Part shown: piece after piece, positions 2,594 through 12,722 of the stretch
Layout: each line of letters begins with the position of its first letter
How positions within the stretch are numbered: position 1 is the stretch's first letter
Virus record (IMG/VR): IMGVR_UViG_2711768053_000016
Span: 1 to 12,722 of that record
Strand: one strand, 5' to 3'
Source: a virus
Taxonomy: Duplodnaviria > Heunggongvirae > Uroviricota > Caudoviricetes
DNA length: 12,722 nt
Position numbers and translations under genes: made by a program
The notes under the pieces: model-generated
What the model saw: the letters and a program-made list of their open reading frames with translations, nothing else
Databases searched by the model: none
What the model was told of the DNA's origin: nothing

Positions 2594-2717
2594 AATATGT
2601 CAGATCTCTCATTGTATGCATCAATTGACACTCGCAAGCGGCGTTGACCGCTCATAACACCAAGGGCTTGCTTAGCTAAACATGCCTCAACAAGCCTCAA
2701 GCAGTGGAGTTTATCAA
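2594..2717. promoter_or_regulatory. Lysis/lysogeny switch region between C and the cox-like gene (expected Pc/Pe promoters and C operators)
   Basis: Position by analogy with P2/186. Contains TTGACA (2625-2630), a second TTGAC 19 bp downstream, and on the minus strand a TACAAT about 18 nt upstream of the C start. Exact promoter and operator assignments are not resolved. Confidence 0.5.
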
Positions 2718-3179
2718 ATGAAAGAAATGCGAGAAAACGAATTAAATATGGAAACTCATTTTTTACGTCAGTTCCCGCTAGACAACGGACGAGCTCTGCG
2801 TACCTGCAAAATGACAGAAACACAAGCTGCGCGTATCAGAGACATCAGCCTAGAAGAGCTACAAAAACAAATCTTCGCCACTCCGGAAGAGTTTGCTTAT
2901 CTAACTGGTCGCACCCTCAAATCGGTGCGCAACCTGATGGATCGTGCGCAGGTGCCAGTTCATAGAGAAGGCATGCCCGGGTCAAAGCGCCCTAAACGCT
3001 TCATCATGTTGCAAGAATACTGGAAAGCTGTTGCTCATTGCCGCGCTCTCATCACTCCAGAAGAAAAACACTACATTGATCGTCTGATGCGTGACAAGAA
3101 GACTTATCGCCGCACAACCGGTAAAGAGCATCGAGTTCTAAAACGCAATAGCATCAGTGCACTGCAGGCAGGACTATAA
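2718..3179 (+). CDS. Cox-like DNA-binding regulator/excisionase with a C-terminal extension (153 aa)
   Basis: First gene of the rightward operon. GGAG lies 8 nt upstream of ATG 2718 (the track ORF starts at ATG 2682). The pattern FAYLTGRT..VRNLMD..PV..EYW resembles P2 Cox (FAKLIGKS..VRRMID..PV..EYW), but the protein is longer than P2 Cox. Confidence 0.55.
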   Translation: MKEMRENELNMETHFLRQFPLDNGRALRTCKMTETQAARIRDISLEELQKQIFATPEEFAYLTGRTLKSVRNLMDRAQVPVHREGMPGSKRPKRFIMLQEYWKAVAHCRALITPEEKHYIDRLMRDKKTYRRTTGKEHRVLKRNSISALQAGL

Positions 3180-3181
3180 AC

Positions 3182-3595
3182 ATGAATACTGATAGCACAG
3201 CTAAAGCGCTACTGGAACGACTGGAAACCCTGAAAAACGAAAAACCACACCAGAAGCTTTTGCTGGTTTTTCCGGGCAAACCACAGGTTGAAATCAGCAT
3301 TGACTACCACGAATTACACAGAACGTTCGCTGACCTGATGGCATTTAAATCAAAGCTTCAGAATGGCGAAGATTTGAAAAATGTCACCCTACGTCCCGAC
3401 GATGAATACGGTCATTTTTGTCGAGATGACGTCAAAGAGACGATTGGAATGATTTTAGAACCAATATACGGCGTTGCGCTCCGTTTTCCCGCCAAAGAAG
3501 TCTTTGAGCTTTATCGACAAATTTTAAGCAGTGACAACATGGTTATTGAGGTCGGAAATGTGCCAGAGAAAATCTCCGGCACGGGAGTTAAATAA
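3182..3595 (+). CDS. Hypothetical protein (137 aa), early operon
   Basis: ORF begins 2 nt after the cox-like stop on the same strand. No recognisable motif. Confidence 0.6.
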   Translation: MNTDSTAKALLERLETLKNEKPHQKLLLVFPGKPQVEISIDYHELHRTFADLMAFKSKLQNGEDLKNVTLRPDDEYGHFCRDDVKETIGMILEPIYGVALRFPAKEVFELYRQILSSDNMVIEVGNVPEKISGTGVK

Positions 3596-3778
3596 TCACT
3601 CAGGGAAAGTCCATGTACTTGCCTGAGGATATTTTTCCAACGTGAGCTTACGCACTTCGTGCATAAGCTTACGAATGGTATTTGATGGCTCTCCTTTATT
3701 CGGAGGATTAACCGGCGCTTTCTCTAATACATAAATTGCCGCATTTAGCGCATCAATAACCTTTTTATCATAGGACAT
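3596..3778 (-). CDS. Hypothetical small protein (60 aa), oriented against the early operon
   Basis: ORF with AAGGA 7 nt upstream of its ATG on the minus strand. Its stop abuts the stop of the 3182..3595 gene (convergent, no spacer). No recognisable motif. Confidence 0.45.
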   Translation of the reverse strand: MSYDKKVIDALNAAIYVLEKAPVNPPNKGEPSNTIRKLMHEVRKLTLEKYPQASTWTFPE

Positions 3779-4281
3779 ATTTTATTCCTTTGTGGTTGGT
3801 TGAACACGCGCCCTTTACAGCCCCTTCAAGACTGCGGGCGGTGGAAAAATACCACAAAACCATGCGCCGGGCATGGCTAAAACCCGGCACAAATTCGCAA
3901 CAGCAGCAGGATATTTTTGTATGAAGCAACGACGTAATTCTTCACAGCAACGCTTCCGCAACGGGGCGGAACGCCACGCTAACCGTTTCGCTACCAGTGC
4001 ATCACGCAGCAGCTCTCGCTACAGCCTGAGTGATACACACGCAACGCCGGATGGCTACCCAGTAAAACAAATCGGCGAGCATGCCTAGCTGATTGAGAAA
4101 GCTGGAATCGTGGTCCACAAATGCCCACGCAATCCGCTTACCGGAAACCGCATTTTTGCATTGAGCTGCGGCGACAATCAGTTCGGGCAGGATTTCACAT
4201 TATACGAAGCACTTCGCACGGTTGATCGTCTGCTTCGCGGACAAAGTTTTATTAAACAGGTTGATTTATAACAGGTGATTT

Positions 4282-4560
4282 ATGACCAAAGAGTATGCAC
4301 AAGGTGTATTTATCCGTTTTATTGATTTTCGCGGTGAACTGTTATTACGCGCATCAGCCATTGACGGAGTTGTTCCATCCGAAAAAAACGCAGCTACTTA
4401 CGTTTATCTGAACGGTACGCGCCTGACTGTGGAGCTTCCGTACCAGACCGTACGAGAAATCATTAGCGAAGCTGAAAAGGCACGTCAGATTAATAGCGAT
4501 GAACCATACATCGAAATTATCTGCATGGATTCAAAAGCAGAAATCCAGAAGGCAGATTAA
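4282..4560 (+). CDS. Hypothetical protein (92 aa)
   Basis: ORF with AGGTGA immediately upstream; first gene after a roughly 500-bp non-coding gap. Confidence 0.6.
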   Translation: MTKEYAQGVFIRFIDFRGELLLRASAIDGVVPSEKNAATYVYLNGTRLTVELPYQTVREIISEAEKARQINSDEPYIEIICMDSKAEIQKAD

Positions 4561-4571
4561 AGGACGTTGCA

Positions 4572-4814
4572 ATGGACCAGGAATACAAAACTCTCGTCAA
4601 TAAAGCACTTGAGCGCTTTCATTTTCGCTTAAACACGTCAGGCCCCCACGCTGAACACGCAGCCCATGATTCATTAGCGAGGGCTATCAGAAGTCTTTAT
4701 GACGTAGCTTTTTACGCTGACGATTTGGATGCGATTAACGAGCTTTCCGAACTCGTCTGCGCCGCAGAATGCGGAGAACGCATTGAACCGTATAAGCTGG
4801 GGGATATCGCATGA
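4572..4814 (+). CDS. Hypothetical protein (80 aa)
   Basis: ORF with AAGGA 8 nt upstream, 11 nt after the preceding stop. Confidence 0.6.
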   Translation: MDQEYKTLVNKALERFHFRLNTSGPHAEHAAHDSLARAIRSLYDVAFYADDLDAINELSELVCAAECGERIEPYKLGDIA

Positions 4815-4924
4815 GTATATTTATCTCATGGCTTGTTCTGATTATTTCGGTGGTCTGCGCCATTGGGATTATGCGAATTATTCATTCAGTAAAAAAGATT
4901 GAACGTTTTTTCTCTGATGAATAA
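4811..4924 (+). CDS. Small hydrophobic peptide (37 aa, MSIFISWLVLIISVVCAIGIMRIIHSVKKIERFFSDE), predicted single TM helix with basic C-terminus
   Basis: Not in the supplied ORF track (too short). ATG overlaps the upstream stop (ATGA) and GGGGGA lies 7 nt upstream. Hydrophobic run of about 20 residues. Confidence 0.4.
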   Translation: MSIFISWLVLIISVVCAIGIMRIIHSVKKIERFFSDE

Positions 4925-5017
4925 CGATACAAATAAAACATCAAATTAAATAAGAAAACGTGAAAACCATCCGTATTAACGGAGGTATTCGCACACGCAA
5001 ATAACGGAGATATAAAA

Positions 5018-5428
5018 ATGCACGCAAAAGAAGAAGGTATCATCAGTGCACTGAAAGAAATTTCAAAGATGGAAAGCGAAGTAGCGAAAAAAGCCGTAGC
5101 AAATGATCATATAGACATCGCTACCCACGCAATGATAGTCACAAAAGTCACGGCAGAAGCCGCCAAAATCATCGAAGAACAGGGTGCGGAACTTACGCTT
5201 TTCAAAACTCAACCAGTCACCGGACTGGATTTATCTAACACCGGACGTCTTATTTACACAATTGGCTCGGAGCTACAGCGATACACCATTATCGCCGGAT
5301 TACAGGACAAATACCTGATCACTCCTCACCCCATAAGAGAATCAGAAATTCTGACAAATCTCCGCCTGATAGAGCGCTCTCAAGTTGCATTCATTGATGA
5401 CGCACAGCACACCGTATTTAACGCATAG
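5018..5428 (+). CDS. Hypothetical protein (136 aa)
   Basis: ORF with GGAG 8 nt upstream, after an AT-rich spacer. Confidence 0.6.
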   Translation: MHAKEEGIISALKEISKMESEVAKKAVANDHIDIATHAMIVTKVTAEAAKIIEEQGAELTLFKTQPVTGLDLSNTGRLIYTIGSELQRYTIIAGLQDKYLITPHPIRESEILTNLRLIERSQVAFIDDAQHTVFNA

Positions 5429-5451
5429 GGTTATTGGACAAAGGGGGCGCA

Positions 5452-5655
5452 ATGGCAATTAAGCATTTTCCCGTCGTTCGCTTTACCTCCAGAGGGCGCG
5501 AATACGAGGTCGACGAACGCCTGATTACAACTATCGACAAACATCGTTCGGAAAAGGATGCACACCACATCTACCTCACTGACGGCACTTACTTCTGCGC
5601 CACTAATGTGGTGCGGGTGAACCTTATCCGACAGGTACAAGAGTCACGCAGATGA
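5452..5655 (+). CDS. Hypothetical protein (67 aa)
   Basis: Track ORF begins at TTG 5434; I prefer ATG 5452, which has GGGGG 5 nt upstream. Stop overlaps the next start (ATGA). Confidence 0.5.
   Translation: MAIKHFPVVRFTSRGREYEVDERLITTIDKHRSEKDAHHIYLTDGTYFCATNVVRVNLIRQVQESRR
5617..5655. repeat. 39-bp direct repeat, copy 1 (GTGAACCTTATCCGACAGGTACAAGAGTCACGCAGATGA)
   Basis: 33 of 39 positions identical to copy 2 at 5999-6037. Both copies encode a C-terminal ..RQVQES.. tail and end in an ATGA stop/start overlap. Confidence 0.7.
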
Positions 5656-5918
5656 CCATTCTGGACTATATCGCTACTCATCCGGGTTGTAGCGGCGGAG
5701 AAATCGCCGCAGCACTGAATACTCCAACCACAGCCATTAATGCTGAGTTACGCCGACTTTGGCGCAGCGGCTTAGTCATCAGAACAAACCGCAGCACAGG
5801 TGGTCACGCTCGCAAAACAGGAGGCCGGGCTTCTTACCACGTAAACCCGATGCCGTTCGGGTGTGGCAACCCACTAACCCACATGTTTAACCAGCTACTG
5901 AAGGAAGCCAGAGCATGA
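5652..5918 (+). CDS. Putative winged-helix DNA-binding protein (88 aa)
   Basis: N-terminal pattern LDYIATHPGCSGGEIAAAL....AELRRLWRSGLVIR is typical of small wHTH regulators. Start and stop both overlap neighbouring genes. Confidence 0.5.
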   Translation: MTILDYIATHPGCSGGEIAAALNTPTTAINAELRRLWRSGLVIRTNRSTGGHARKTGGRASYHVNPMPFGCGNPLTHMFNQLLKEARA

Positions 5919-6037
5919 GCACCATCAACCACCAGGAACCACGCGAACTGACGACTGCCGTACAAAGAATGTCTACCCAAAAATCACTGCCATTCCGTGT
6001 GAGCCCTGTCCGACAGGTACAGGAGTCACACGGATGA
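5915..6037 (+). CDS. Small ORF (40 aa), possible remnant or duplicated gene tail
   Basis: Not in the ORF track. Its last 12 codons are copy 2 of the 39-bp repeat; translationally coupled on both sides. Could be non-functional. Confidence 0.3.
   Translation: MSTINHQEPRELTTAVQRMSTQKSLPFRVSPVRQVQESHG
5999..6037. repeat. 39-bp direct repeat, copy 2 (GTGAGCCCTGTCCGACAGGTACAGGAGTCACACGGATGA)
   Basis: See copy 1; spacing between copies is 382 bp. Confidence 0.7.
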
Positions 6038-6252
6038 ACAGAAGGAGAATTACACGCAGACATCGCCGCACACGCCTGAGCTCCCCGCCAACACTAAAGG
6101 AACTCATTCAAAGCGAGATCGGTGATTTCTTCGCTGGGTTTGGATCACCTGGCGAACCAGAAACACCAGAAGCGATGCAGCGCGAACTCATGATGCGCAT
6201 CGATAACGTTTTTGACTTTTTCCTGAATAACAAAAGAGAGCAACCGACATGA
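6034..6252 (+). CDS. Hypothetical protein (72 aa) with arginine-rich N-terminus (MNRRRITRRHRRTR) and acidic C-terminal half
   Basis: ORF translationally coupled upstream and downstream. The Arg-rich motif suggests nucleic-acid binding; this is inference only. Confidence 0.55.
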   Translation: MNRRRITRRHRRTRLSSPPTLKELIQSEIGDFFAGFGSPGEPETPEAMQRELMMRIDNVFDFFLNNKREQPT

Positions 6253-6452
6253 ACGAAAGGACCTGGTTTCGCGCATACATGTGGGCGCTGGTATGCGCCC
6301 TCTTTTCTCTCATTCTGTATGCAGGACTACTCCCCCGAATGATTTCATCAGACAGCTCCTTCCTGGTATTGCTGGGCATTTTCATTGCCATGCTGTACCC
6401 GGCAGGCGTTGTTCGCCTTTTCAGTAAGTACATCAAGGAAATCAAACAATGA
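6249..6452 (+). CDS. Small integral membrane protein (67 aa, two predicted TM helices)
   Basis: Two hydrophobic segments (WALVCALFSLILYAGLL and FLVLLGIFIAMLYPAGVV). Stop overlaps the start of the SPFH gene (ATGA). Confidence 0.6.
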   Translation: MNERTWFRAYMWALVCALFSLILYAGLLPRMISSDSSFLVLLGIFIAMLYPAGVVRLFSKYIKEIKQ

Positions 6453-7279
6453 AGAAATTCAAACTCTTTCAGATTCTCCCGCTTTTTGCCGCCATCCTGC
6501 TGGTTGGTTGCGATCGCGTTGAGCCAGGTAATGTGGGCATCAAAGTCAACAAACTGGGCGACGACAAAGGCGTCGGCGAAGTAGTTGGCGTTGGCCGCTA
6601 CTGGACAGGCTGGAATACAGAGGTTTACATCTTCCCGACCTTCAAACAAATGAAGACCTACGATGAGCCGTTCAGCTTTCAGATGAGTGACGGCACAACC
6701 ATCGGCTATCACATCGGTGTGGCCTACAAGGTTGATCCATCCAAAGTTACCACAGTGTTTCAGACCTACCGCAAAGGCGTGGATGACATTACCGACACTG
6801 ACCTGCGCCAGAAGATCGCCGATGCACTCAACCGACTGGCCAGCAAAATGACCACCGATAAGTTTATCGACGGTGGTAAGTCTGAACTGCTGGATTCAGC
6901 ACTTAAAGATATTCAGGAAGAGATGACCCCCATCGGCATTCAGGTCATGAGCCTCTCTTATGTCGGTAAACCGGAATATCCGCCAACCGTTATCGACAGC
7001 ATTAACGCCAAAGTCACGGCAAACCAGAAAACCCTGCAACGCGAACAGGAAGTCAAGCAACGCGAAGCAGAAGCCAACATGCTGCGCGCAGAAGCTGCCG
7101 GACAGGCTGATGCCATTCGCACAAAAGCCCAGGCTGAAGCCGACGCCATTCGTTTACGCGGTGAAGCTCTGCGCCAGAATCCCGGCGTTATGGAGCTGGA
7201 AGCAATCAACAAATGGAACGGCACGCTACCGCAATACATGACCAGCAATACCGCTGTTCCGTTTGTTCCGGTGAAGTAA
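6449..7279 (+). CDS. SPFH/band-7 (stomatin/prohibitin/HflKC-like) lipoprotein (276 aa)
   Basis: N-terminal signal peptide with lipobox LLVGC. SPFH-like entry motif (VEPGNVGIKVNKLG), followed by an Ala/Glu/Arg/Gln-rich coiled-coil segment (EAEANMLRAEAAGQADAIRTKAQAEADAIRLRGEA) typical of HflK/HflC-type proteins. Family assignment from memory of the domain signature, not a search. Confidence 0.75.
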   Translation: MKKFKLFQILPLFAAILLVGCDRVEPGNVGIKVNKLGDDKGVGEVVGVGRYWTGWNTEVYIFPTFKQMKTYDEPFSFQMSDGTTIGYHIGVAYKVDPSKVTTVFQTYRKGVDDITDTDLRQKIADALNRLASKMTTDKFIDGGKSELLDSALKDIQEEMTPIGIQVMSLSYVGKPEYPPTVIDSINAKVTANQKTLQREQEVKQREAEANMLRAEAAGQADAIRTKAQAEADAIRLRGEALRQNPGVMELEAINKWNGTLPQYMTSNTAVPFVPVK

Positions 7280-7285
7280 TTAAAC

Positions 7286-7330
7286 CCGGCCAGTGAAAAT
7301 CGCTGGCCGGAGCAGTATCAGGATTTTTTT
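7286..7330 (+). terminator. Hairpin (CCGGCCAG-n9-CTGGCCGG) followed 13 nt later by a T7 run; possible terminator of the early/cargo operon
   Basis: Perfect 8-bp GC-rich stem starts 7 nt after the SPFH stop. The U-tract is not immediately adjacent to the stem, so efficiency is uncertain. Confidence 0.4.
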
Positions 7331-7447
7331 AGCATGCCGTTCTCACAAAAAAACCGCTTGCCATGCCGCAATCAGTCAGGTTACATTTCCGCTGCACCTC
7401 ATAAAACGGGTGCCGGGTTTCGCAGCCTGCTGATCAACAAAGCGCAC

Positions 7448-7468
7448 AACCGCGCCAGCGGTTTTTTT
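7448..7468 (+). terminator. Compact hairpin (AACCGC-GCCA-GCGGTT) immediately followed by T7; intrinsic-terminator-like
   Basis: Seen directly in sequence. Lies in a roughly 320-bp stretch with no convincing coding potential. Confidence 0.45.
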
Positions 7469-7650
7469 GTGCGTACCGCATTGCCGCACATTTTTTCGCA
7501 TCAGAATTATGGTGGGGCGTACGGGGCCGACTTCGGTCGGGCCGGGTTTTCTTTGTTGACCGGTACTGCGAACCTCGTACGTCTCGCCACCCACAGTTTC
7601 GCAGCTCTGGATGGCGAGTATTTAAAACTTACCAACAAAGAGGCCACACC

Positions 7651-7881
7651 ATGGCAAACCGCAAACAGCACCGCGCTATCGCGGAGCGTCGTCACATCCA
7701 GACTGAAATCGATCGCAGACTCACCCGCGCTGCACACATCGCCTTTATCATGCAATCCAACACATTGCACAGACTCAACAGCACTATTTCAGCCGACTAC
7801 TGCGCCGCTGTATTCAGCTATCTGGCGGAAGACCTCCTGTCTCTTCAGGATCTCATCCAGCAGCAAAACAAACTCCATTAA
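7651..7881 (+). CDS. Hypothetical protein (76 aa)
   Basis: AAAGAGG lies 7 nt upstream of the ATG. Overlaps, in another frame, the long track ORF 7334..8320, whose upstream part I consider non-coding. Confidence 0.5.
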   Translation: MANRKQHRAIAERRHIQTEIDRRLTRAAHIAFIMQSNTLHRLNSTISADYCAAVFSYLAEDLLSLQDLIQQQNKLH

Positions 7882-7954
7882 TCCCTGTTCCGGGCCTTTC
7901 CTGCACCTTGCGGCGGGAGGCCTTCGCACATCTGTAGTAAAGAGGATTGCCGCA

Positions 7955-8320
7955 ATGATTCTCGCCAACGACTTTCTTGAATACCTGCTCAACACAGAGC
8001 GTGATCTTGCCGTTCGCGTGCGTGACCGTTATGACATGTACCTGAAATCCCTGCCCGCACCGCAGCTCGCTGACGGAAAAATTGTTATTGATGGTCGCTA
8101 CATGATTGACAGCCACGAGGGGAATTACAGGCTTTACCGCATTGAAGGCGGCACCCCGTCCGTTATTGGCATTTACCAGCGCCCATCCTCTGCGATCGTC
8201 GATGTGATTGCCGACAGCATCCGCATCACACACCACCATGCCGACACAGAAGACACTGTGCTGGAGATTCAGCGGCTGGCTGCCGTTTGCCGTGACACTC
8301 TGAATGGCATGACGAAGTAA
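7955..8320 (+). CDS. Hypothetical protein (121 aa) immediately upstream of the replication gene
   Basis: Internal ATG of the track ORF 7334..8320, with AAAGAGGA 9 nt upstream. Ends 6 nt before the gpA-like start. Confidence 0.55.
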   Translation: MILANDFLEYLLNTERDLAVRVRDRYDMYLKSLPAPQLADGKIVIDGRYMIDSHEGNYRLYRIEGGTPSVIGIYQRPSSAIVDVIADSIRITHHHADTEDTVLEIQRLAAVCRDTLNGMTK

Positions 8321-8326
8321 ATCAGT

Positions 8327-11149
8327 ATGACGACAGAGTACATCAGGGACTGGCAACAACCGCGCCACGCAGTAGGACGTGAAGGAACGGAGATCCCCGC
8401 ACCTGAATCCGCACTTTCCTCCTGGCTGGATGCCTACCGGGCAGAGAACGAACGCCGCCAGGAAATGGCTGATGCGGCGTTCTCCGCCACACCGCTGGGC
8501 AACCTGATTAATAAAAGCCTGGACGCACAGGAAAAACAGGACAAAACCATCACACTGGCAGGAGACGCCAGAAAGCAGGCACGCGGCGCGGTGGATGAAG
8601 CCATGGCCTCGCTGCGCCTGCTGCCGTCCTATCTGCGCGATCCGCTTATTCGCCACCTCTCCTTCCTGCGCAAAAAACAGGAAGCTGATCGCCGGAAAGG
8701 CAAAAAGAGCTGGCAGGCTGAACGCTACGCGCGCGGAACCCTGCGCAAAATATTCGAACGCCTGGACCGCACCGACCACCGCTGGCTGACACCGGGTTAT
8801 CGCTCCCTTGCCGGACGCGAACGCCTGGACGATTTGCTTTACCTGCCGCAGCTCAACAAACACCAGATACAGACGCTGGCCACCATGACGGCGGCGATGT
8901 TCAGCAGCACCTTCGAAAAACTCTGCGATGGCTTTGGCGCGACCGATGGCGAACTGACCATGGATGTAACGCTGAAGGCGTATCAGATGCTGGCCCGCAT
9001 GGCGTTACACCTGCACATCATGCCTCCACATTATGACGCACTGACAACAGATAAAGACCGGAGGAACGAACCGGACACGGAGCTGCTGCCGGGCGCAATC
9101 CTTCGCCTGACCTGTGCGGAATGGTGGAAACGCAAACTGTGGCTGTTACGTTGCGAGTGGAGAGAAGAACAACTCCGCGCCGCCTGTCTGGTTTCCAGAA
9201 AAACATCACCCTATCTGAGCCAGGACGCGTTAAGCGAGTTTCGCGCACAGCGCGAGAAAACACGCGATTTCCTGAAAAGTTTCATGCTGGAAAATGAAGA
9301 CGGGTTCACGATTGATCTCGAGACAGTGTATTACGCGGGAGTAAGTAACCCGGTTCACCGTAAGGCAGAAATGATGGCCACCATGAAGGGACTGGAACTT
9401 CTGGCCGAAGCCCGTGGCGACAGAGCGGTGTTTCTGACTGTCACCTGCCCGTCAAAATACCACGCAACAACGGAGAACGGTCATCCGAACCCCAAATGGA
9501 ACGGGGCCACCATGCGCGACTCCAGCGATTACCTGGTTAACACGTTTTTTGCGGCGGTCCGCAAAAAACTGAACCGCGACGGCCTGCGCTGGTATGGCAT
9601 CCGCACGGTGGAGCCTCACCATGACGGCACCGTGCACTGGCATATGATGGTCTTTGCTCATCCGGAAGAAATCGACAGCATCGTGGCCATCACCCGCGAT
9701 ATTGCCATTCAGGAAGACCGCCACGAGCTGGGCAATGATATTACTCCGCGCTTTAAGGTGGAGTATGTCGACGGCTCCAAAGGCACACCAACCAGCTATA
9801 TCGCGACCTACATCGGAAAAAACCTGGACAGCCGCGCCGTGGATGGCATCGACCCGAAAACGGGCAAGCCACGCGTTGACCACGAAACCGGAAAATCAAT
9901 GGCCGAGAGTGTGGAACGCGCCATCGGCTGGGCGCGCCTTCACCGAGTCCGCCAGTTCCAGTTCTTTGGCATCCCCTCCCGTCAGGTATGGCGTGAACTC
10001 CGCCGCCTTGCCAGCCAGATGGCACGCAACCCGGAAGGCCCACAACGGCTGAAGGATGATGCAATGGATGCGGTACTCGCTGCCGCTGATGCCGGGTGTT
10101 TTGCCACCTACATTGAGAAACAGGGCGGCGTACTTGTTCCACGCAAAGACTACCTGATTCGCACCGCCTACAACCTCGCAGATGAGCTGAACGATTACGG
10201 CGAACAGAGCGTACAGATTTACGGGATCTGGTCACCACTCATCGGGGAATCCTCCCGTGTGTGCACGCACCCGGATAACTGGAAGCTGGTAAGACGTAAA
10301 CCGGAAGCGGAAGACAGCACCCGCGAAAATGGTTTTGACCTTCAGGGCGGCCCTGCCGCCCCTTGGACTCGTGGCAATAACTGTCCCCGTGTACAGGAAA
10401 CGGACAACAACGGGACAGAACAGCCGGAAGAACGGCCAGCACCGTGGCCGCAGCTCCCTGACGGCGTTGAAGTGAACGAATGGATGCGCTCACTGAAACG
10501 GCACGAACGCCGGGCGCTGATGCGTTCGCTTCGTGCCAAACAGGCAAAAAACAGCAGTGATGAAATGCAGAGCTGGACACAGAGCCACAAACAGCAGCGG
10601 CCTTTGCCTGATAACCACGAATTACTCGCTAAAGAATGGCGGGAATCTGCCGAATCTCTCGGCCTGCATATCGGTGAACAGCAGATGCAGCACCTGTTAC
10701 GGGGCGGCAGCCTGTACGTTGACGGCAGCATCATTGCACCGCAGGGATTTGAAATTGTACGCAAACCGGATACCCGCCCGGACAGCCGAATCACGCAGCT
10801 CTGGCAGCGCCTGAGCCGTAATCACGGCGTAAGCAGCACGGAGATCCGCCATAACCCGGTCGCCAGCTATCTGGAACAGCTGGGGGCATCAGACCCCGAA
10901 GCCGCCGCACGTCTGGCATCCACACTTCAGCAGGACCAGAACACCATGAAAACCCCCGTTACCGTGCTTTCTGACATGCTGCGCGCCATCCGTGACGCAG
11001 AGCACGCACAGAGAATCAGTGAAACCACTGAACGCGCCCACCGCAAAGCAGACCTGCTGCGGGGTAGCCTGACCAGTGGAAACAAAAAACAGACAGAAAC
11101 GGGATTCACAAATCCCGTAAATGAGCAAAAAACGTGCCGCGATATATGA
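8327..11149 (+). CDS. P2 gpA-family rolling-circle replication initiator (HUH endonuclease), 940 aa
   Basis: Rolling-circle initiator motifs in order: AVFLTVTCPSKYH (motif 1), HDGTVHWHMMVF (HUH, His437/His439), and SYIATYIGKN with two tyrosines 4 residues apart (Tyr491/Tyr495). Position at the end of the early operon matches P2 gene A; the protein is longer than P2 gpA. Confidence 0.85.
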   Translation: MTTEYIRDWQQPRHAVGREGTEIPAPESALSSWLDAYRAENERRQEMADAAFSATPLGNLINKSLDAQEKQDKTITLAGDARKQARGAVDEAMASLRLLPSYLRDPLIRHLSFLRKKQEADRRKGKKSWQAERYARGTLRKIFERLDRTDHRWLTPGYRSLAGRERLDDLLYLPQLNKHQIQTLATMTAAMFSSTFEKLCDGFGATDGELTMDVTLKAYQMLARMALHLHIMPPHYDALTTDKDRRNEPDTELLPGAILRLTCAEWWKRKLWLLRCEWREEQLRAACLVSRKTSPYLSQDALSEFRAQREKTRDFLKSFMLENEDGFTIDLETVYYAGVSNPVHRKAEMMATMKGLELLAEARGDRAVFLTVTCPSKYHATTENGHPNPKWNGATMRDSSDYLVNTFFAAVRKKLNRDGLRWYGIRTVEPHHDGTVHWHMMVFAHPEEIDSIVAITRDIAIQEDRHELGNDITPRFKVEYVDGSKGTPTSYIATYIGKNLDSRAVDGIDPKTGKPRVDHETGKSMAESVERAIGWARLHRVRQFQFFGIPSRQVWRELRRLASQMARNPEGPQRLKDDAMDAVLAAADAGCFATYIEKQGGVLVPRKDYLIRTAYNLADELNDYGEQSVQIYGIWSPLIGESSRVCTHPDNWKLVRRKPEAEDSTRENGFDLQGGPAAPWTRGNNCPRVQETDNNGTEQPEERPAPWPQLPDGVEVNEWMRSLKRHERRALMRSLRAKQAKNSSDEMQSWTQSHKQQRPLPDNHELLAKEWRESAESLGLHIGEQQMQHLLRGGSLYVDGSIIAPQGFEIVRKPDTRPDSRITQLWQRLSRNHGVSSTEIRHNPVASYLEQLGASDPEAAARLASTLQQDQNTMKTPVTVLSDMLRAIRDAEHAQRISETTERAHRKADLLRGSLTSGNKKQTETGFTNPVNEQKTCRDI
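11099..11118. promoter_or_regulatory. Perfect palindrome ACGGGATT-caca-AATCCCGT (site 1), overlapping the last codons of the replication gene
   Basis: Seen directly in sequence. Near-identical site 2 lies 73 bp downstream, directly upstream of parM; candidate ParR operator or centromere half. Confidence 0.4.
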
Positions 11150-11171
11150 AGCGCGCACAAAACAGGCAAAA

Positions 11172-11191
11172 ACGGGATTTCAGAATCCTGT
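11172..11191. promoter_or_regulatory. Palindrome ACGGGATT-tcag-AATCCTGT (site 2), 35-54 nt upstream of the parM start
   Basis: One mismatch from a perfect palindrome. Flanks match site 1 (AAACGGGATT ... GTAAA). Position is consistent with a parC-like autoregulatory/centromere site. Confidence 0.4.
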
Positions 11192-11225
11192 AAACGATTA
11201 ATTAATCAACATAAGGAAAAGCGAC

Positions 11226-12185
11226 ATGAAAATTTGTATCGACGACGGCTCCACCAACATCAAGCTGGCATGGACTGAGAACGGCGAACGCCGCAACGCC
11301 ATCAGCCCGAACAGCTTCAAGTCGGAATGGTCTGCGCCGTTCGGTGGCACGCAGCCCGCGAACTACATGCTTGATGGCGTGCGCTATGGTTTTGATCCGG
11401 TCAGCGATCGCTTTGTCCAGACGACCGACACGCAATACCAGTACAGCGATGTGAATGTCATTGCCATTCATCACGCGCTGGTCAAATCAGGCATCACGCC
11501 ACAGGAGGTGGATGTGGTTGTCACCCTGCCACTGAGCGAGTATTTCGACACAAACGCACAACCGGACATGGCCAACATCAACCGCAAAAAAGCGAACGTT
11601 ATGCGCCCGGTGGAGTACCAGAACGGCGAGGCATTCACTATCCGTAACGTGCGGGTTATGCCTGAATCCATTCCGGCTGGCTTTAAAGCACTGGCTGACA
11701 TGAGTCCGTTTGAATCCCTGCTGATTGTGGATTTGGGCGGAACCACGCTGGATGTGGCAAAGGTTCAGGGGCAACTGGCAGGTATCAGCCAGGTGTTTTG
11801 CGATCCACACGTAGGCGTTTCTCTGATGGCCGGTGCCGTGCTGTCGGTGATGGCCACCAACGGTATGCGTACCAGTCACCACATCGCTAATACCATTATC
11901 GAACATCGCCACGATGAAGCCTGGCTGCGCCAGCACATCCACAATAACGCACATTACGCCAGCCTGATGGCAGTTATTCGTGAAAAGGAGGAAACACTGA
12001 AACAACGCGTGATCCGCGCGCTGGCGGGTTTTTCGGGTTACGGGCGGGTGATGGTTGTAGGTGGAGGAGCGGAGATTGTGGCACCCGCTATCCGCGAAGC
12101 CTGCGGAGTTAATGCGACTTTCATCGCGGACGGGGTGCCACAGTTTGCTCTGGTTAATGGGCTGTACGCAATGGATAAGGAGTAA
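11226..12185 (+). CDS. parM: Actin-like segregation ATPase, ParM/StbA family (319 aa)
   Basis: Recognisable similarity to plasmid R1 ParM (from memory): MKICIDDGSTNIKLAW (phosphate-1), VMPESIPAG, LIVDLGGTTLD (phosphate-2), VMVVGGGAE (adenosine motif). AAGGA RBS upstream. Confidence 0.85.
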   Translation: MKICIDDGSTNIKLAWTENGERRNAISPNSFKSEWSAPFGGTQPANYMLDGVRYGFDPVSDRFVQTTDTQYQYSDVNVIAIHHALVKSGITPQEVDVVVTLPLSEYFDTNAQPDMANINRKKANVMRPVEYQNGEAFTIRNVRVMPESIPAGFKALADMSPFESLLIVDLGGTTLDVAKVQGQLAGISQVFCDPHVGVSLMAGAVLSVMATNGMRTSHHIANTIIEHRHDEAWLRQHIHNNAHYASLMAVIREKEETLKQRVIRALAGFSGYGRVMVVGGGAEIVAPAIREACGVNATFIADGVPQFALVNGLYAMDKE

Positions 12186-12189
12186 ATCA

Positions 12190-12504
12190 ATGACGACACC
12201 AACCAGACGGATAAGTTTCTATCTGAAGCCCGCCGTCGTCAAGAGCGAACGGGAGGCGTGCAGTTACCTCGACAGCCTGCCAGCCTCCGAACGCAGCCGC
12301 GCACAACGCGCGGCTTTTCTGGCCGGACTGGCTCTTATAAAACGCATCCCCGCGTTGGCGTATTCGCTGGCAGAATGGTCAGAAGACGAAATAAGGATGC
12401 CACCGCTACCAGTACAGCCTGAAAAACCGGCGCAACCAGCAGCAGACTGCGCCCCCCATATGCAGCAGGTGAAGAAGAATATTCAGGCGTTTTTTCCGAA
12501 GTGA
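12190..12504 (+). CDS. parR: ParR/StbB-family centromere-binding protein (104 aa)
   Basis: N-terminus RRISFYLKPAVVKSEREACSYLDSLPASERSRAQRAAFLAGLAL parallels R1 ParR (RRTIAFKLNP...DTLDSIPQGERSRLNRAALTAGLAL, from memory). ATG 12190 has AAGGAG upstream and sits 5 nt after the parM stop; the track's longer ORF (12061) would overlap parM and is rejected. Confidence 0.75.
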   Translation: MTTPTRRISFYLKPAVVKSEREACSYLDSLPASERSRAQRAAFLAGLALIKRIPALAYSLAEWSEDEIRMPPLPVQPEKPAQPAADCAPHMQQVKKNIQAFFPK

Positions 12505-12518
12505 AAACAGGAGTAACT

Positions 12519-12722
12519 ATGTCCACCATTACCAAAGAATGGTTACAACGTAAAATCACAGAGTTTAAATCGTGGCGCGAAGACATCCCGTTCGGTCTTG
12601 ATGAAGACGATCACAATATGTTAATCGCACTGGAAATCGCACTTGCATCACTGGAAGCAGAGCCAGTGGCATGGATGCACGCAAATAATCCTATTGGAAT
12701 GCCGGCGATAACAAGAAGTAAA
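12519..12722 (+). CDS. Hypothetical protein, 5-prime portion only (68 codons; continues beyond window)
   Basis: ATG 12519 with GGAG 8 nt upstream; open to the window end. No recognisable motif in the visible part. Confidence 0.5.
   Translation, partial: MSTITKEWLQRKITEFKSWREDIPFGLDEDDHNMLIALEIALASLEAEPVAWMHANNPIGMPAITRSK

Follow-up and report, generated by a model that had tools for sequence, protein, structure and literature searches.

We analysed a stretch of 12,722 nt from the IMG/VR viral record IMGVR_UViG_2711768053_000016, which we call the window and whose positions serve as coordinates throughout. Our results indicate, with a probability of about 0.78, that the interval between the gene in the position of cox and the replication gene A, which includes positions 3182–7330, is the mosaic rightward early operon of a P88-like prophage beside the Escherichia coli gene glsA, and not a single cargo insertion. 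An earlier note on this DNA had described 3182–7330 as an expanded block of cargo genes; about half of it turns out to be a syntenic backbone under selection rather than one insertion, while the rest does lie in exchangeable slots, of which there are three (A, B and C). This copy is almost maximally loaded, with slots A, B and C all occupied.

A P88-like prophage beside glsA

Positions 3950–12722 match many E. coli prophages and phage P88 at 93–96% DNA identity in megablast comparisons, and the left flank (1–1147) is E. coli glsA at 99.9% identity. In P88 and SC418 the annotation begins with integrase, C-type repressor and cox, continues with DUF4761, a hypothetical protein, DUF4754, a membrane protein of 37 amino acids (aa) and a product of 67 aa, and then lists proteins like MarR and Ead/Ea22, a small membrane protein, an SPFH lipoprotein, the 'derepression protein', a product of 121 aa, gene A (replication endonuclease) and ParM; gene A, ParM and the backbone genes of the window follow the order of P88 at high DNA identity. 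Because of the glsA flank and of this P88-like identity and gene order, we assign the window, on sequence grounds, to the left end of a P88-like prophage (genus Xuanwuvirus, Peduoviridae) adjoining glsA, with the prophage end at about position 1148. This prophage was not seen at glsA in any of the 5426 complete E. coli genomes, and related phages of its type are integrated elsewhere, for example beside pdxB or dmsA.

The early operon is bordered by two genes:

2682–3179, + strand: open reading frame (ORF) of 165 aa in the position of cox, which opens the rightward early operon and bounds the block on its left
8327–11149, + strand: gene A for a replication endonuclease of 940 aa, the actual right border of the block

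The 165-aa gene is cox-like by position only: it has a weak match to phrog_11919 and a weak similarity, in its helix-turn-helix (HTH) region, to an annotated Cox-family protein, and retrieved no Pfam or NCBIfam match. It is 100% identical in three loci (L010, L011 and L075), and the set of integrase, repressor and cox is uncommon, only three of the retrieved loci sharing it at 98–100% identity. Gene A is 32–35% identical to the A proteins of P2 and 186. Downstream of it, going by the annotation of relatives, lie a ParM-type gene for plasmid segregation and a partition/stability gene (11226–12185 and beyond), which are unusual for an integrating P2-family phage and hint at a plasmid-like phase or at stabilised replicating DNA.

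A syntenic backbone under purifying selection

The survey comprised 80 IMG/VR loci and three full-length genome loci with a related gene A (95–99% and 82–97% identical to the query, respectively), each with up to 10 kb upstream, plus four annotated records; all proteins of the window were mapped onto these loci by tblastn. The entire integrase-to-A interval is held by 75 loci, which are the relatives of all the presence counts given here. A fourth genome locus (L008) has only a fragment of gene A. Two contigs labelled Vagococcus sp. and Planococcaceae metagenome-assembled genome (L006 and L008; Firmicutes) bear an enterobacterial-type gene A at 85–93% identity, and L006 also holds most of a P88-like early operon; contamination or mis-binning of the assemblies is the most likely origin of both.

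Seven genes are present and syntenic in 68 to 75 of the 75 relatives, with ratios of nonsynonymous to synonymous substitution (dN/dS) of 0.08–0.32 that denote purifying selection:

3921–4271, + strand: DUF4761 core gene, disrupted in this copy (Pfam DUF4761 at 224 bits on the intact homologue; dN/dS 0.19)
4282–4560, + strand: phrog_3800 core gene, 92 aa (PHROG E 6e-57; 73 of 75 relatives; dN/dS 0.16)
4572–4814, + strand: DUF4754 core gene, 80 aa (Pfam, 159 bits; 75 of 75 relatives; dN/dS 0.11)
4811–4924, + strand: core hydrophobic peptide, 37 aa, a membrane protein in the P88 annotation (74 of 75 relatives; dN/dS 0.32)
5452–5655, + strand: phrog_3459 core gene, 67 aa (75 of 75 relatives, median identity 97%; dN/dS 0.08)
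5652–5918, + strand: MarR-type winged-helix protein, predicted to bind DNA, 88 aa, core (MarR_2, HTH_24 and phrog_1687; 68 of 75 relatives)
7955–8320, + strand: phrog_3237 core gene, 121 aa, directly upstream of gene A (73 of 75 relatives; dN/dS 0.12)

The core segment 3921–4924 occurs in 1385 of the 5426 complete E. coli genomes, about a quarter. Within it, the gene of the 37-aa peptide is joined to the DUF4754 gene through an ATGA overlap. The phrog_3459 gene and the winged-helix gene that follows are fused in phrog_19053. The MarR_2 match of the 88-aa protein (30.4 bits; cut-off 27) covers the winged HTH part only, a full dimeric MarR having some 140 aa, and the protein is best described as a predicted winged-helix protein. 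A homology of phrog_3237 with orf151 or orf106 of P4 was considered and rejected, as we found no similarity.

In this copy, a TGG-to-TAG change at 4086–4088, evident in the alignment with SC418 and P88, cuts the DUF4761 gene into ORFs of 71 and 53 aa. All 75 relatives have the gene in intact form, and the TAG is private to this copy; the gene may have been inactivated recently, the amber codon may be suppressible, or the base may have been misread in sequencing. The nonsense codon raises the question of the viability of the prophage.

Conservation and synteny in related phages, with known early-function homologues such as fil and dhr of 186, had been named in the note as what would mark these as core early genes: about half of the genes are indeed conserved and syntenic, but none is homologous to an early gene of P2 or 186. 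In tblastn comparisons of all the proteins of the window with P2 and 186 only the integrase, C and A match, every other hit having E > 0.2, and we found no homologue of the B helicase loader, cII, fil or dhr between cox and A. The P2 genes (orf78, B, orf80-83) and those of 186 (cII, fil, dhr, orf79-84) are likewise small, packed and placed between cox/apl and A, with six genes in P2 and nine in 186; by these comparisons the P88-type early operon is a different gene set at the same position.

The twelve plus-strand ORFs of 37–137 aa reported between 3182 and 7330 are all there (137, 71, 53, 92, 80, 37, 136, 73, 88, 40, 72 and 67 aa, the 73-aa ORF having 67 aa if counted from its ATG). They are not twelve separate genes, however, because four are fragments of the two disrupted genes, DUF4761 and phrog_4144; the list was also incomplete, as it omitted a 276-aa gene (6449–7279) and a 60-aa gene on the minus strand (3596–3778). 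Stop and start codons, said to overlap at most junctions, do so at half of them, with 4-base ATGA overlaps at six of twelve gene junctions by coordinates. The statement that the genes have no recognisable homology is wrong at the family level, since ten products belong to PHROG families and four carry Pfam domains (DUF4761, DUF4754, MarR_2/winged HTH and Band_7/SPFH): the products of the block are orphan in function, not in relatedness.

The observations on composition and size were confirmed. The block has 47.8% GC against 53.8% in glsA and 57.4% in gene A, its lowest values being those of slot A (44.0%) and slot B (42.9%). The cox-to-A length is 5.15 kb, compared with 1.75 kb in P2, 3.3 kb in 186 and 3.95 kb in P88, and the integrase-to-A distance is 6073 bp, a value exceeded in only four of the 75 relatives (range 2787–6189 bp).

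Three slots with exchangeable contents

Alignment against relatives, which had been proposed as a way to find variable cassettes, did delimit three slots of quantised size. They lie at three fixed positions that vary among the relatives in discrete steps: slot B measures 90 bp when empty, or else 356, 401, about 535 or 810–846 bp, and slot C 145 bp when empty, or else 925, 1226, about 1500, about 2010 or 2758 bp; the distance from integrase to DUF4761 ranges from 750 to 2395 bp. Slot occupants are patchy, being found in 8 (137-aa gene of slot A), 4 (its 60-aa minus-strand neighbour), 34 (phrog_9338 of slot B), 24 (a two-gene SPFH cassette of slot C) and 59 (the 76-aa gene of slot C) of the 75 relatives, and slot contents are exchanged between otherwise near-identical phages, as would be expected of cargo; it is to these three slots alone that the idea of cargo applies. 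Alternative occupants in relatives include a DUF2511 protein, a 189-aa HTH protein and several orphans. At the other extreme, 12 relatives show a minimal form, with 2.8 kb from integrase to A, that keeps the core genes and an intact gene A and lacks every slot occupant as well as the RNA unit described below. Our best guess is that the slot proteins are phage–phage or phage–host interaction factors.

Relatives of the L013 type carry extra minus-strand genes between integrase and repressor, for a 216-aa orphan and a secreted DUF2511 protein of 101–115 aa. This leftward integrase–repressor operon is a fourth accessory position, in which expression in the lysogen would be expected.

These data bear directly on the proposal that the whole 4 kb is one cargo block between cox and the replication genes, with effectors that would act in host takeover, exclusion or anti-defence. 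Such a block would account for a region that is long and AT-rich relative to its flanks, that has no homologue in the early operons of P2 and 186, and most of whose products have no known function; besides, P2-like prophages have a minor hotspot for defence between integrase and primase, where 8% of their systems are found (PMC13586616). We nonetheless regard it as improbable, and the survey largely refutes it, because about half of the genes occur throughout the relatives, in the same order and under purifying selection, the core segment alone reaches a quarter of the complete E. coli genomes, the variable DNA lies in three separate slots with independent contents, and no occupant has a PADLOC match. 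Specifically, PADLOC v2 models gave no match at E < 0.005 among ten proteins scanned from the window and its relatives, nor for ten alternative slot occupants taken from relatives.

The opposite proposal, that all the genes from cox to A are ordinary core machinery and that the slots reflect allelic divergence, could draw on slot families that are both widespread and divergent, such as phrog_4144 (49–54 of 75 relatives, 54–100% identity) and phrog_9338 (32–91% identity). It is very unlikely, as the 12 minimal relatives dispense with all the occupants, the occupants are unrelated families and not alleles, and the SPFH cassette is also found in lambdoid Stx2 phages.

Slot A

Slot A (3182–3920), which separates the cox-position gene from DUF4761, contains two convergent genes and a conserved arm:

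3182–3595, + strand: patchy gene for a 137-aa protein of a very small enterobacterial family
3596–3778, − strand: patchy convergent gene, 60 aa, whose 3′ end abuts the 137-aa gene
3779–3920, no strand assigned: right arm of 142 bp, with the region upstream of the minus-strand gene and the leader and ribosome-binding site (RBS) of DUF4761

The 3779–3920 arm is 99–100% identical in all eight slot A carriers, whatever their minus-strand partner, and is absent from P88 and SC418 in the alignment. Slot A sequences occur in only about 10 of the 5426 complete E. coli genomes. In E300010 and E. albertii the plus-strand protein has 202 aa and a different tail, and its partner is a 155-aa protein of the ECs1072 family; in a Citrobacter prophage the two proteins have 162 and 78 aa. 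The three partners (60, 78 and 155 aa) are unrelated by eye. A profile search of 1.84 billion representatives found three credible members of the 137-aa family and no route to a known family, and the 60-aa protein has five known clusters, each of exactly 60 aa.

This organisation suggested that slot A could be a self-contained two-component module, that is, a toxin–antitoxin, abortive-infection or exclusion pair whose minus-strand gene would be made in the lysogen and whose 137-aa protein would counteract its partner at lytic entry. The two genes are convergent and their 3′ ends abut or overlap, the partner is swapped while the C-terminal tail of the plus-strand protein changes along with it, the arms of the cassette are conserved, and the minus-strand gene opposes the early operon, as expected of a moron expressed in the lysogen. 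However, the pair has no PADLOC, Pfam or NCBIfam match other than to ECs1072, an uncharacterised family; structure predictions and fold searches for slot A gave no usable match and no similarity to known toxins or antitoxins, and we did not find the toxin–antitoxin or abortive-infection domains or folds that we sought there. There is no recognisable promoter, the 60-aa ORF is under weak constraint, and the co-variation of the tail may be due to a mere recombination breakpoint inside the plus-strand gene. In all, a two-component module whose minus-strand gene is expressed in the lysogen is a reasonable guess and no more, and we consider it rather unlikely.

By its position, slot A was also attractive as a lysogeny-establishment module like cII/pE of 186, with leftward transcription toward C and int; this idea was set aside because there is no detectable HTH and the slot is rare among the relatives. 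Likewise, the 60-aa protein and the 63-aa minus-strand protein of L024-type relatives look alike by eye, but BLASTP returned no alignment and we do not claim any kinship; their respective plus-strand partners align only at 19% identity (E 0.08).

A 6-bp GC-rich hairpin (CCATGC, a 5-base loop and GCATGG) and, after it, a T-rich run can be seen by eye on the minus strand at 3845–3876, within the conserved right arm and upstream of the 60-aa gene; it is absent from the list of the terminator scan.

Slot B

4925–5451, + strand: slot B, which separates the 37-aa peptide gene from phrog_3459, with the gene of a 136-aa phrog_9338 protein (5018–5428); in relatives it is empty (90 bp) or holds other genes

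The phrog_9338 gene has a dN/dS of 0.39, and its family is limited to Escherichia and Shigella, the slot B cassette being found in 479 of the 5426 complete E. coli genomes. Structure prediction had been recommended for each small protein; two predictions were run and yielded no fold assignment. The AlphaFold2 (AF2) model of the 136-aa protein is confident for a helical hairpin at residues 1–64 and poor elsewhere, and a Foldseek search of PDB with this model gave no match with E < 0.7. A sequence search of solved structures found nothing for this protein nor for the 76-aa protein of slot C.

Slot C and its SPFH cassette

Slot C begins at 5919, after the winged-helix gene, and holds three elements: a split phrog_4144, a cassette with a peptide of two transmembrane (TM) segments and an SPFH protein, and an isrK/C4 unit with an epsilon-like gene. 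The first two are:

5915–6252, + strand: phrog_4144 (Ead/Ea22-like in P88), split into ORFs of 40 and 72 aa
6249–7279, + strand: two-gene cassette with an ATGA overlap, for a 67-aa two-TM peptide (6249–6452) and a 276-aa SPFH/Band-7 lipoprotein (6449–7279)

The 40- and 72-aa ORFs match positions 1–30 and 34–99 of phrog_4144, respectively, with insertions and deletions relative to the P88 allele; in RefSeq, the phrog_4144 fragments of SC418 are annotated as partial pseudogenes.

The SPFH protein belongs to the family by its Pfam Band_7 match (PF01145, 108.4 bits, cut-off 23.6, residues 23–209). It shows weak matches to HflK/HflC, its nearest solved relatives are HflK, its signal peptide ends in LVGC, and its gene has a dN/dS of 0.03. 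The 67-aa peptide has a sub-threshold RseC_MucC match only. Both genes always occur together, and the full cassette is found in 145 of the 5426 E. coli genomes. The SPFH gene is also present, at 92–93% DNA identity, in many Stx2-converting phages, where it belongs to the leftward early operon, close to xis and int, and follows a 62-aa two-TM ORF with the same kind of overlap; the two genes thus form a cassette common to lambdoid and P2-family phages. In relatives devoid of it, the stop codon of phrog_4144 lies about 35 bp from the isrK promoter, which places the endpoints of the cassette at about 6253 and about 7340. The second of these is close to the right boundary given in the earlier note. 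In megablast comparisons with E. coli genomes, the cassette (6253–7340) matched 386 plasmid and 418 chromosome places, mostly partially and at lower identity; the plasmid matches mean that relatives of the SPFH gene travel on plasmids too.

The pairing of a small membrane protein with an SPFH gene is comparable to that of nfeD-SPFH operons, and the Band_7 domain is shared with the scaffolds HflK/HflC and QmcA. However, the SPFH protein of the window is a lipoprotein with a signal peptide, whereas the known SPFH scaffolds are N-terminally anchored; its partner is a two-TM peptide without NfeD domain, and no NfeD-family partner adjoins the gene; and the cassette is phage-borne. A literature search with SPFH, prophage and defence terms found nothing on prophage SPFH proteins in defence.

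Two disrupted genes in one operon could suggest that the block is part of a decaying, defective prophage and that some of its small ORFs are relics. In addition to the private nonsense codon in an otherwise always intact DUF4761, phrog_4144 is split and annotated as a pseudogene in a relative, and the exact arrangement of this prophage at glsA is found in none of the complete genomes. All the other genes are nevertheless full length, including the 940-aa gene A; the split form of phrog_4144 is common to several relatives and keeps its ATGA junction; and a lone nonsense codon may have arisen recently, be suppressible or stem from an error in sequencing. Decay of the prophage is thus, in our opinion, unlikely.

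An isrK/C4 antisense-RNA unit upstream of gene A

The third element of slot C (7340–7881), whose RNAs lie in the 370 bp that follow the SPFH gene, comprises two regulatory RNAs, their target sequences and a small gene:

7358–7468, + strand: promoter-like site (7358–7387) and isrK/seqA-type small RNA (7394–7468), with targets a1 (7419–7426) and b1 (7434–7442)
7505–7594, + strand: C4/CI-type antisense RNA, with loops b′ (7549–7559) and a′ (7565–7572)
7598–7642, + strand: downstream targets a2 (7598–7605) and b2 (7632–7642), the latter on the Shine-Dalgarno sequence of the 76-aa gene
7651–7881, + strand: P4-epsilon-like 'derepression' protein, 76 aa (phrog_3688, E 2e-37)

Both RNAs were identified with Rfam models above their gathering scores: isrK (RF01394) at 68.6 bits (gathering 50, E 3e-13) and C4 (RF01695) at 77.8 bits (gathering 45, E 3e-14), in a full-length model match; the c4-a1b1 model gave a weak match of 20.5 bits, below its gathering score. 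IsrK is seqA of P4, and C4 is its CI RNA (PMC3632133, PMC4825925). The promoter-like site upstream of isrK consists of TTGCCA, 18 bases and TACATT, hexamers that are kept in nearly all of 41 aligned variants, and the 3′ end of isrK is a terminator-like hairpin with seven U. The 76-aa protein and P4 epsilon are 29% identical over 66 aa (pairwise BLASTP, E 2e-8). The isrK and C4 RNAs and the 76-aa gene occur together in 67 of 67 loci and are jointly absent from the minimal forms; neither RNA is listed in any of the annotated relatives that we retrieved.

Comparison of 39 distinct leader sequences indicated that loop b′ of C4 is complementary to both b1 and b2, and loop a′ to both a1 and a2. There are five a-types and 13 b-types, which appear in shuffled combinations, and the loops co-vary with both sets of targets, upstream and downstream of the RNA:

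a′/b′ with a2/b2: paired cells 93.5%, slid controls 40–51%; covariation 0.542, highest control 0.148
a′/b′ with a1/b1: paired cells 95.8%, slid controls 26–54%; covariation 0.619, highest control 0.142

Cells with double changes number 137–144, against 10–39 in the controls. A C4 above its gathering score, an isrK upstream of it and two loops with covarying targets on both sides, the sequence features of C4 immunity that we looked for, are thus all present. The two main alleles of the 76-aa protein, which share about 70% identity, occur with many integrase and repressor classes.

A 328-aa ORF (7334–8320) spans both RNAs and, in another frame, the 76-aa gene, and then runs in the frame of phrog_3237. 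It is spurious because it crosses two Rfam RNAs and two genes annotated in relatives, and a gene caller or a reader could easily mistake it for a replication gene. This is probably how the right boundary at 7330 came to be misplaced, since the block of genes other than those for replication extends to 8326.

A control of the derepression gene by the SOS response, like that of tum in 186, was rejected because no LexA box was found near the 76-aa gene, the only matches in the window being at 8202 and 10381, fewer than expected by chance.

Expression of the operon and weighing of the evidence

The plus-strand genes would ride on an early transcript starting between the C repressor and cox, and would therefore be made only after derepression, with the six ATGA overlaps likely allowing translational coupling. 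The 60-aa minus-strand gene and the isrK-C4 unit would have start signals of their own and could be expressed in the lysogen. By analogy with P4, P1 and Gifsy-1, the isrK-C4 unit probably works as in P4 and P1: most transcripts from its own promoter would stop at the isrK terminator, and read-through would yield the C4 RNA, whose a′ and b′ would pair with a2 and b2, masking the RBS of the epsilon-like gene. C4 may also cause termination before phrog_3237 and gene A, and a1 and b1 on IsrK would serve as decoys that compete for C4.

Several points weigh against our interpretation of the interval as a mosaic early operon, or against parts of it. The survey is biased, as its 80 IMG/VR loci are those closest in gene A and include near-duplicates, which makes its frequencies rough. 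The TAG of DUF4761 could be an artefact of sequencing, and the split phrog_4144 could be a functional two-gene allele, because an ATGA overlap joins its ORFs and several relatives have the form too. The 60-aa gene is weakly constrained (dN/dS 0.53, from three comparisons), and a consensus promoter scan returned no sigma-70 site in 3779–3920; the isrK promoter matches the consensus at only 9 of 12 positions, and the 76-aa protein scores 22.1 bits against Pfam Derepression (PF25738), below the cut-off of 27. Transcription from a single early promoter, a promoter for the 60-aa gene and the activity of the isrK promoter are all things that we infer from the DNA. Lastly, the alleles of the 76-aa protein do not follow the C-repressor class of their own prophage, which does not fit a simple role as self-antirepressor; because they are spread over many repressor classes, the target of the protein is perhaps not its own repressor.

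In a tentative and, on balance, unlikely extension, the isrK/C4/epsilon unit would act between elements, not as a second lock on the replication genes of its own prophage; separately, slot A could be a new two-gene exclusion module. Acting between elements, the C4 RNA of the prophage might silence P4-like satellites or sibling phages that enter the cell with a matching specificity, and the epsilon-like protein might derepress other resident P2-family prophages. The two recognition loops of C4 would have been diversified combinatorially, with at least 5 × 13 specificities, and reassorted. An action between elements fits the observation on the alleles of the 76-aa protein, because these do not follow their own repressor class.

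Comparison with known phages

Phage P88 (NC_026014, gp03-gp16) shares the order of the backbone through gene A and ParM, with 93% DNA identity from 3909 on. In P88, however, slots A and B are empty, DUF4761 is intact and phrog_4144 is not split; its integrase (43% identity) and repressor (38% identity) are different too, and it has no match to the cox-position gene. Its C4 specificity is also different, with TTTCCAC for a and CAACTACAG for b. We found nothing in the literature on the early genes of P88 or on C4 RNA in P2-like phages.

In P1 and P7, the two loops of c4 RNA, in immI, pair with duplicated targets (a1b1 and a2b2), one of which covers the RBS upstream of an antirepressor-type gene, and c4 specificity alleles differ between related phages. 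The RNA of the window belongs to the same Rfam family, C4; however, the downstream protein is Icd/Ant in P1/P7 and the 76-aa epsilon-like protein here, and specificity types are far more numerous here, with the a- and b-types reassorted.

The satellite P4 has the Rfam isrK and C4 pair in the same order, upstream of epsilon and then of the replication gene, and complementary target sites both upstream and downstream of the RNA, as in the window. Unlike P4, the element studied here is a P2-type helper phage; its a and b sequences differ from those of P4, and b2 sits directly on the RBS of the epsilon-like gene, whereas in P4 a short ORF intervenes. The CI RNA of P4 works through premature transcription termination (PMC4825925).

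In the isrK-orf45-anrP region of the Salmonella prophage Gifsy-1, IsrK has its own promoter and a leaky terminator and is followed by a non-coding-like stretch and an antirepressor gene under its translational control (PMC4825925). The window resembles it in the succession of an IsrK small RNA, a conserved non-coding-like stretch and an antirepressor-type gene. Gifsy-1 is nevertheless a lambdoid prophage, AnrP is a different and larger antirepressor, and the regulator tested there is IsrK, a trans activator. Finally, and unlike 186, the window lacks a LexA-controlled Tum.

Significance

What had appeared as a block of orphan genes is resolved into a backbone, three slots, two disrupted genes, one spurious ORF and two unannotated regulatory RNAs, a layout that applies to a prophage type present in about a quarter of the complete E. 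coli genomes. The operon itself was already annotated in P88 and in RefSeq, and P4-type antisense immunity is an already known kind of system. The slots are precise places in which to seek small phage–phage or phage–host factors within a minor hotspot of P2-like prophages. The three-way covariation is unusually clear for a P4-type antisense unit in a helper-type phage and is the most instructive feature of the window, although it lies outside 3182–7330. The RNA unit is likewise the most useful by-product of this analysis, since it ties a helper-type phage to the immunity system of the satellite P4 and supplies natural compensatory variants for the study of antisense specificity and heteroimmunity.

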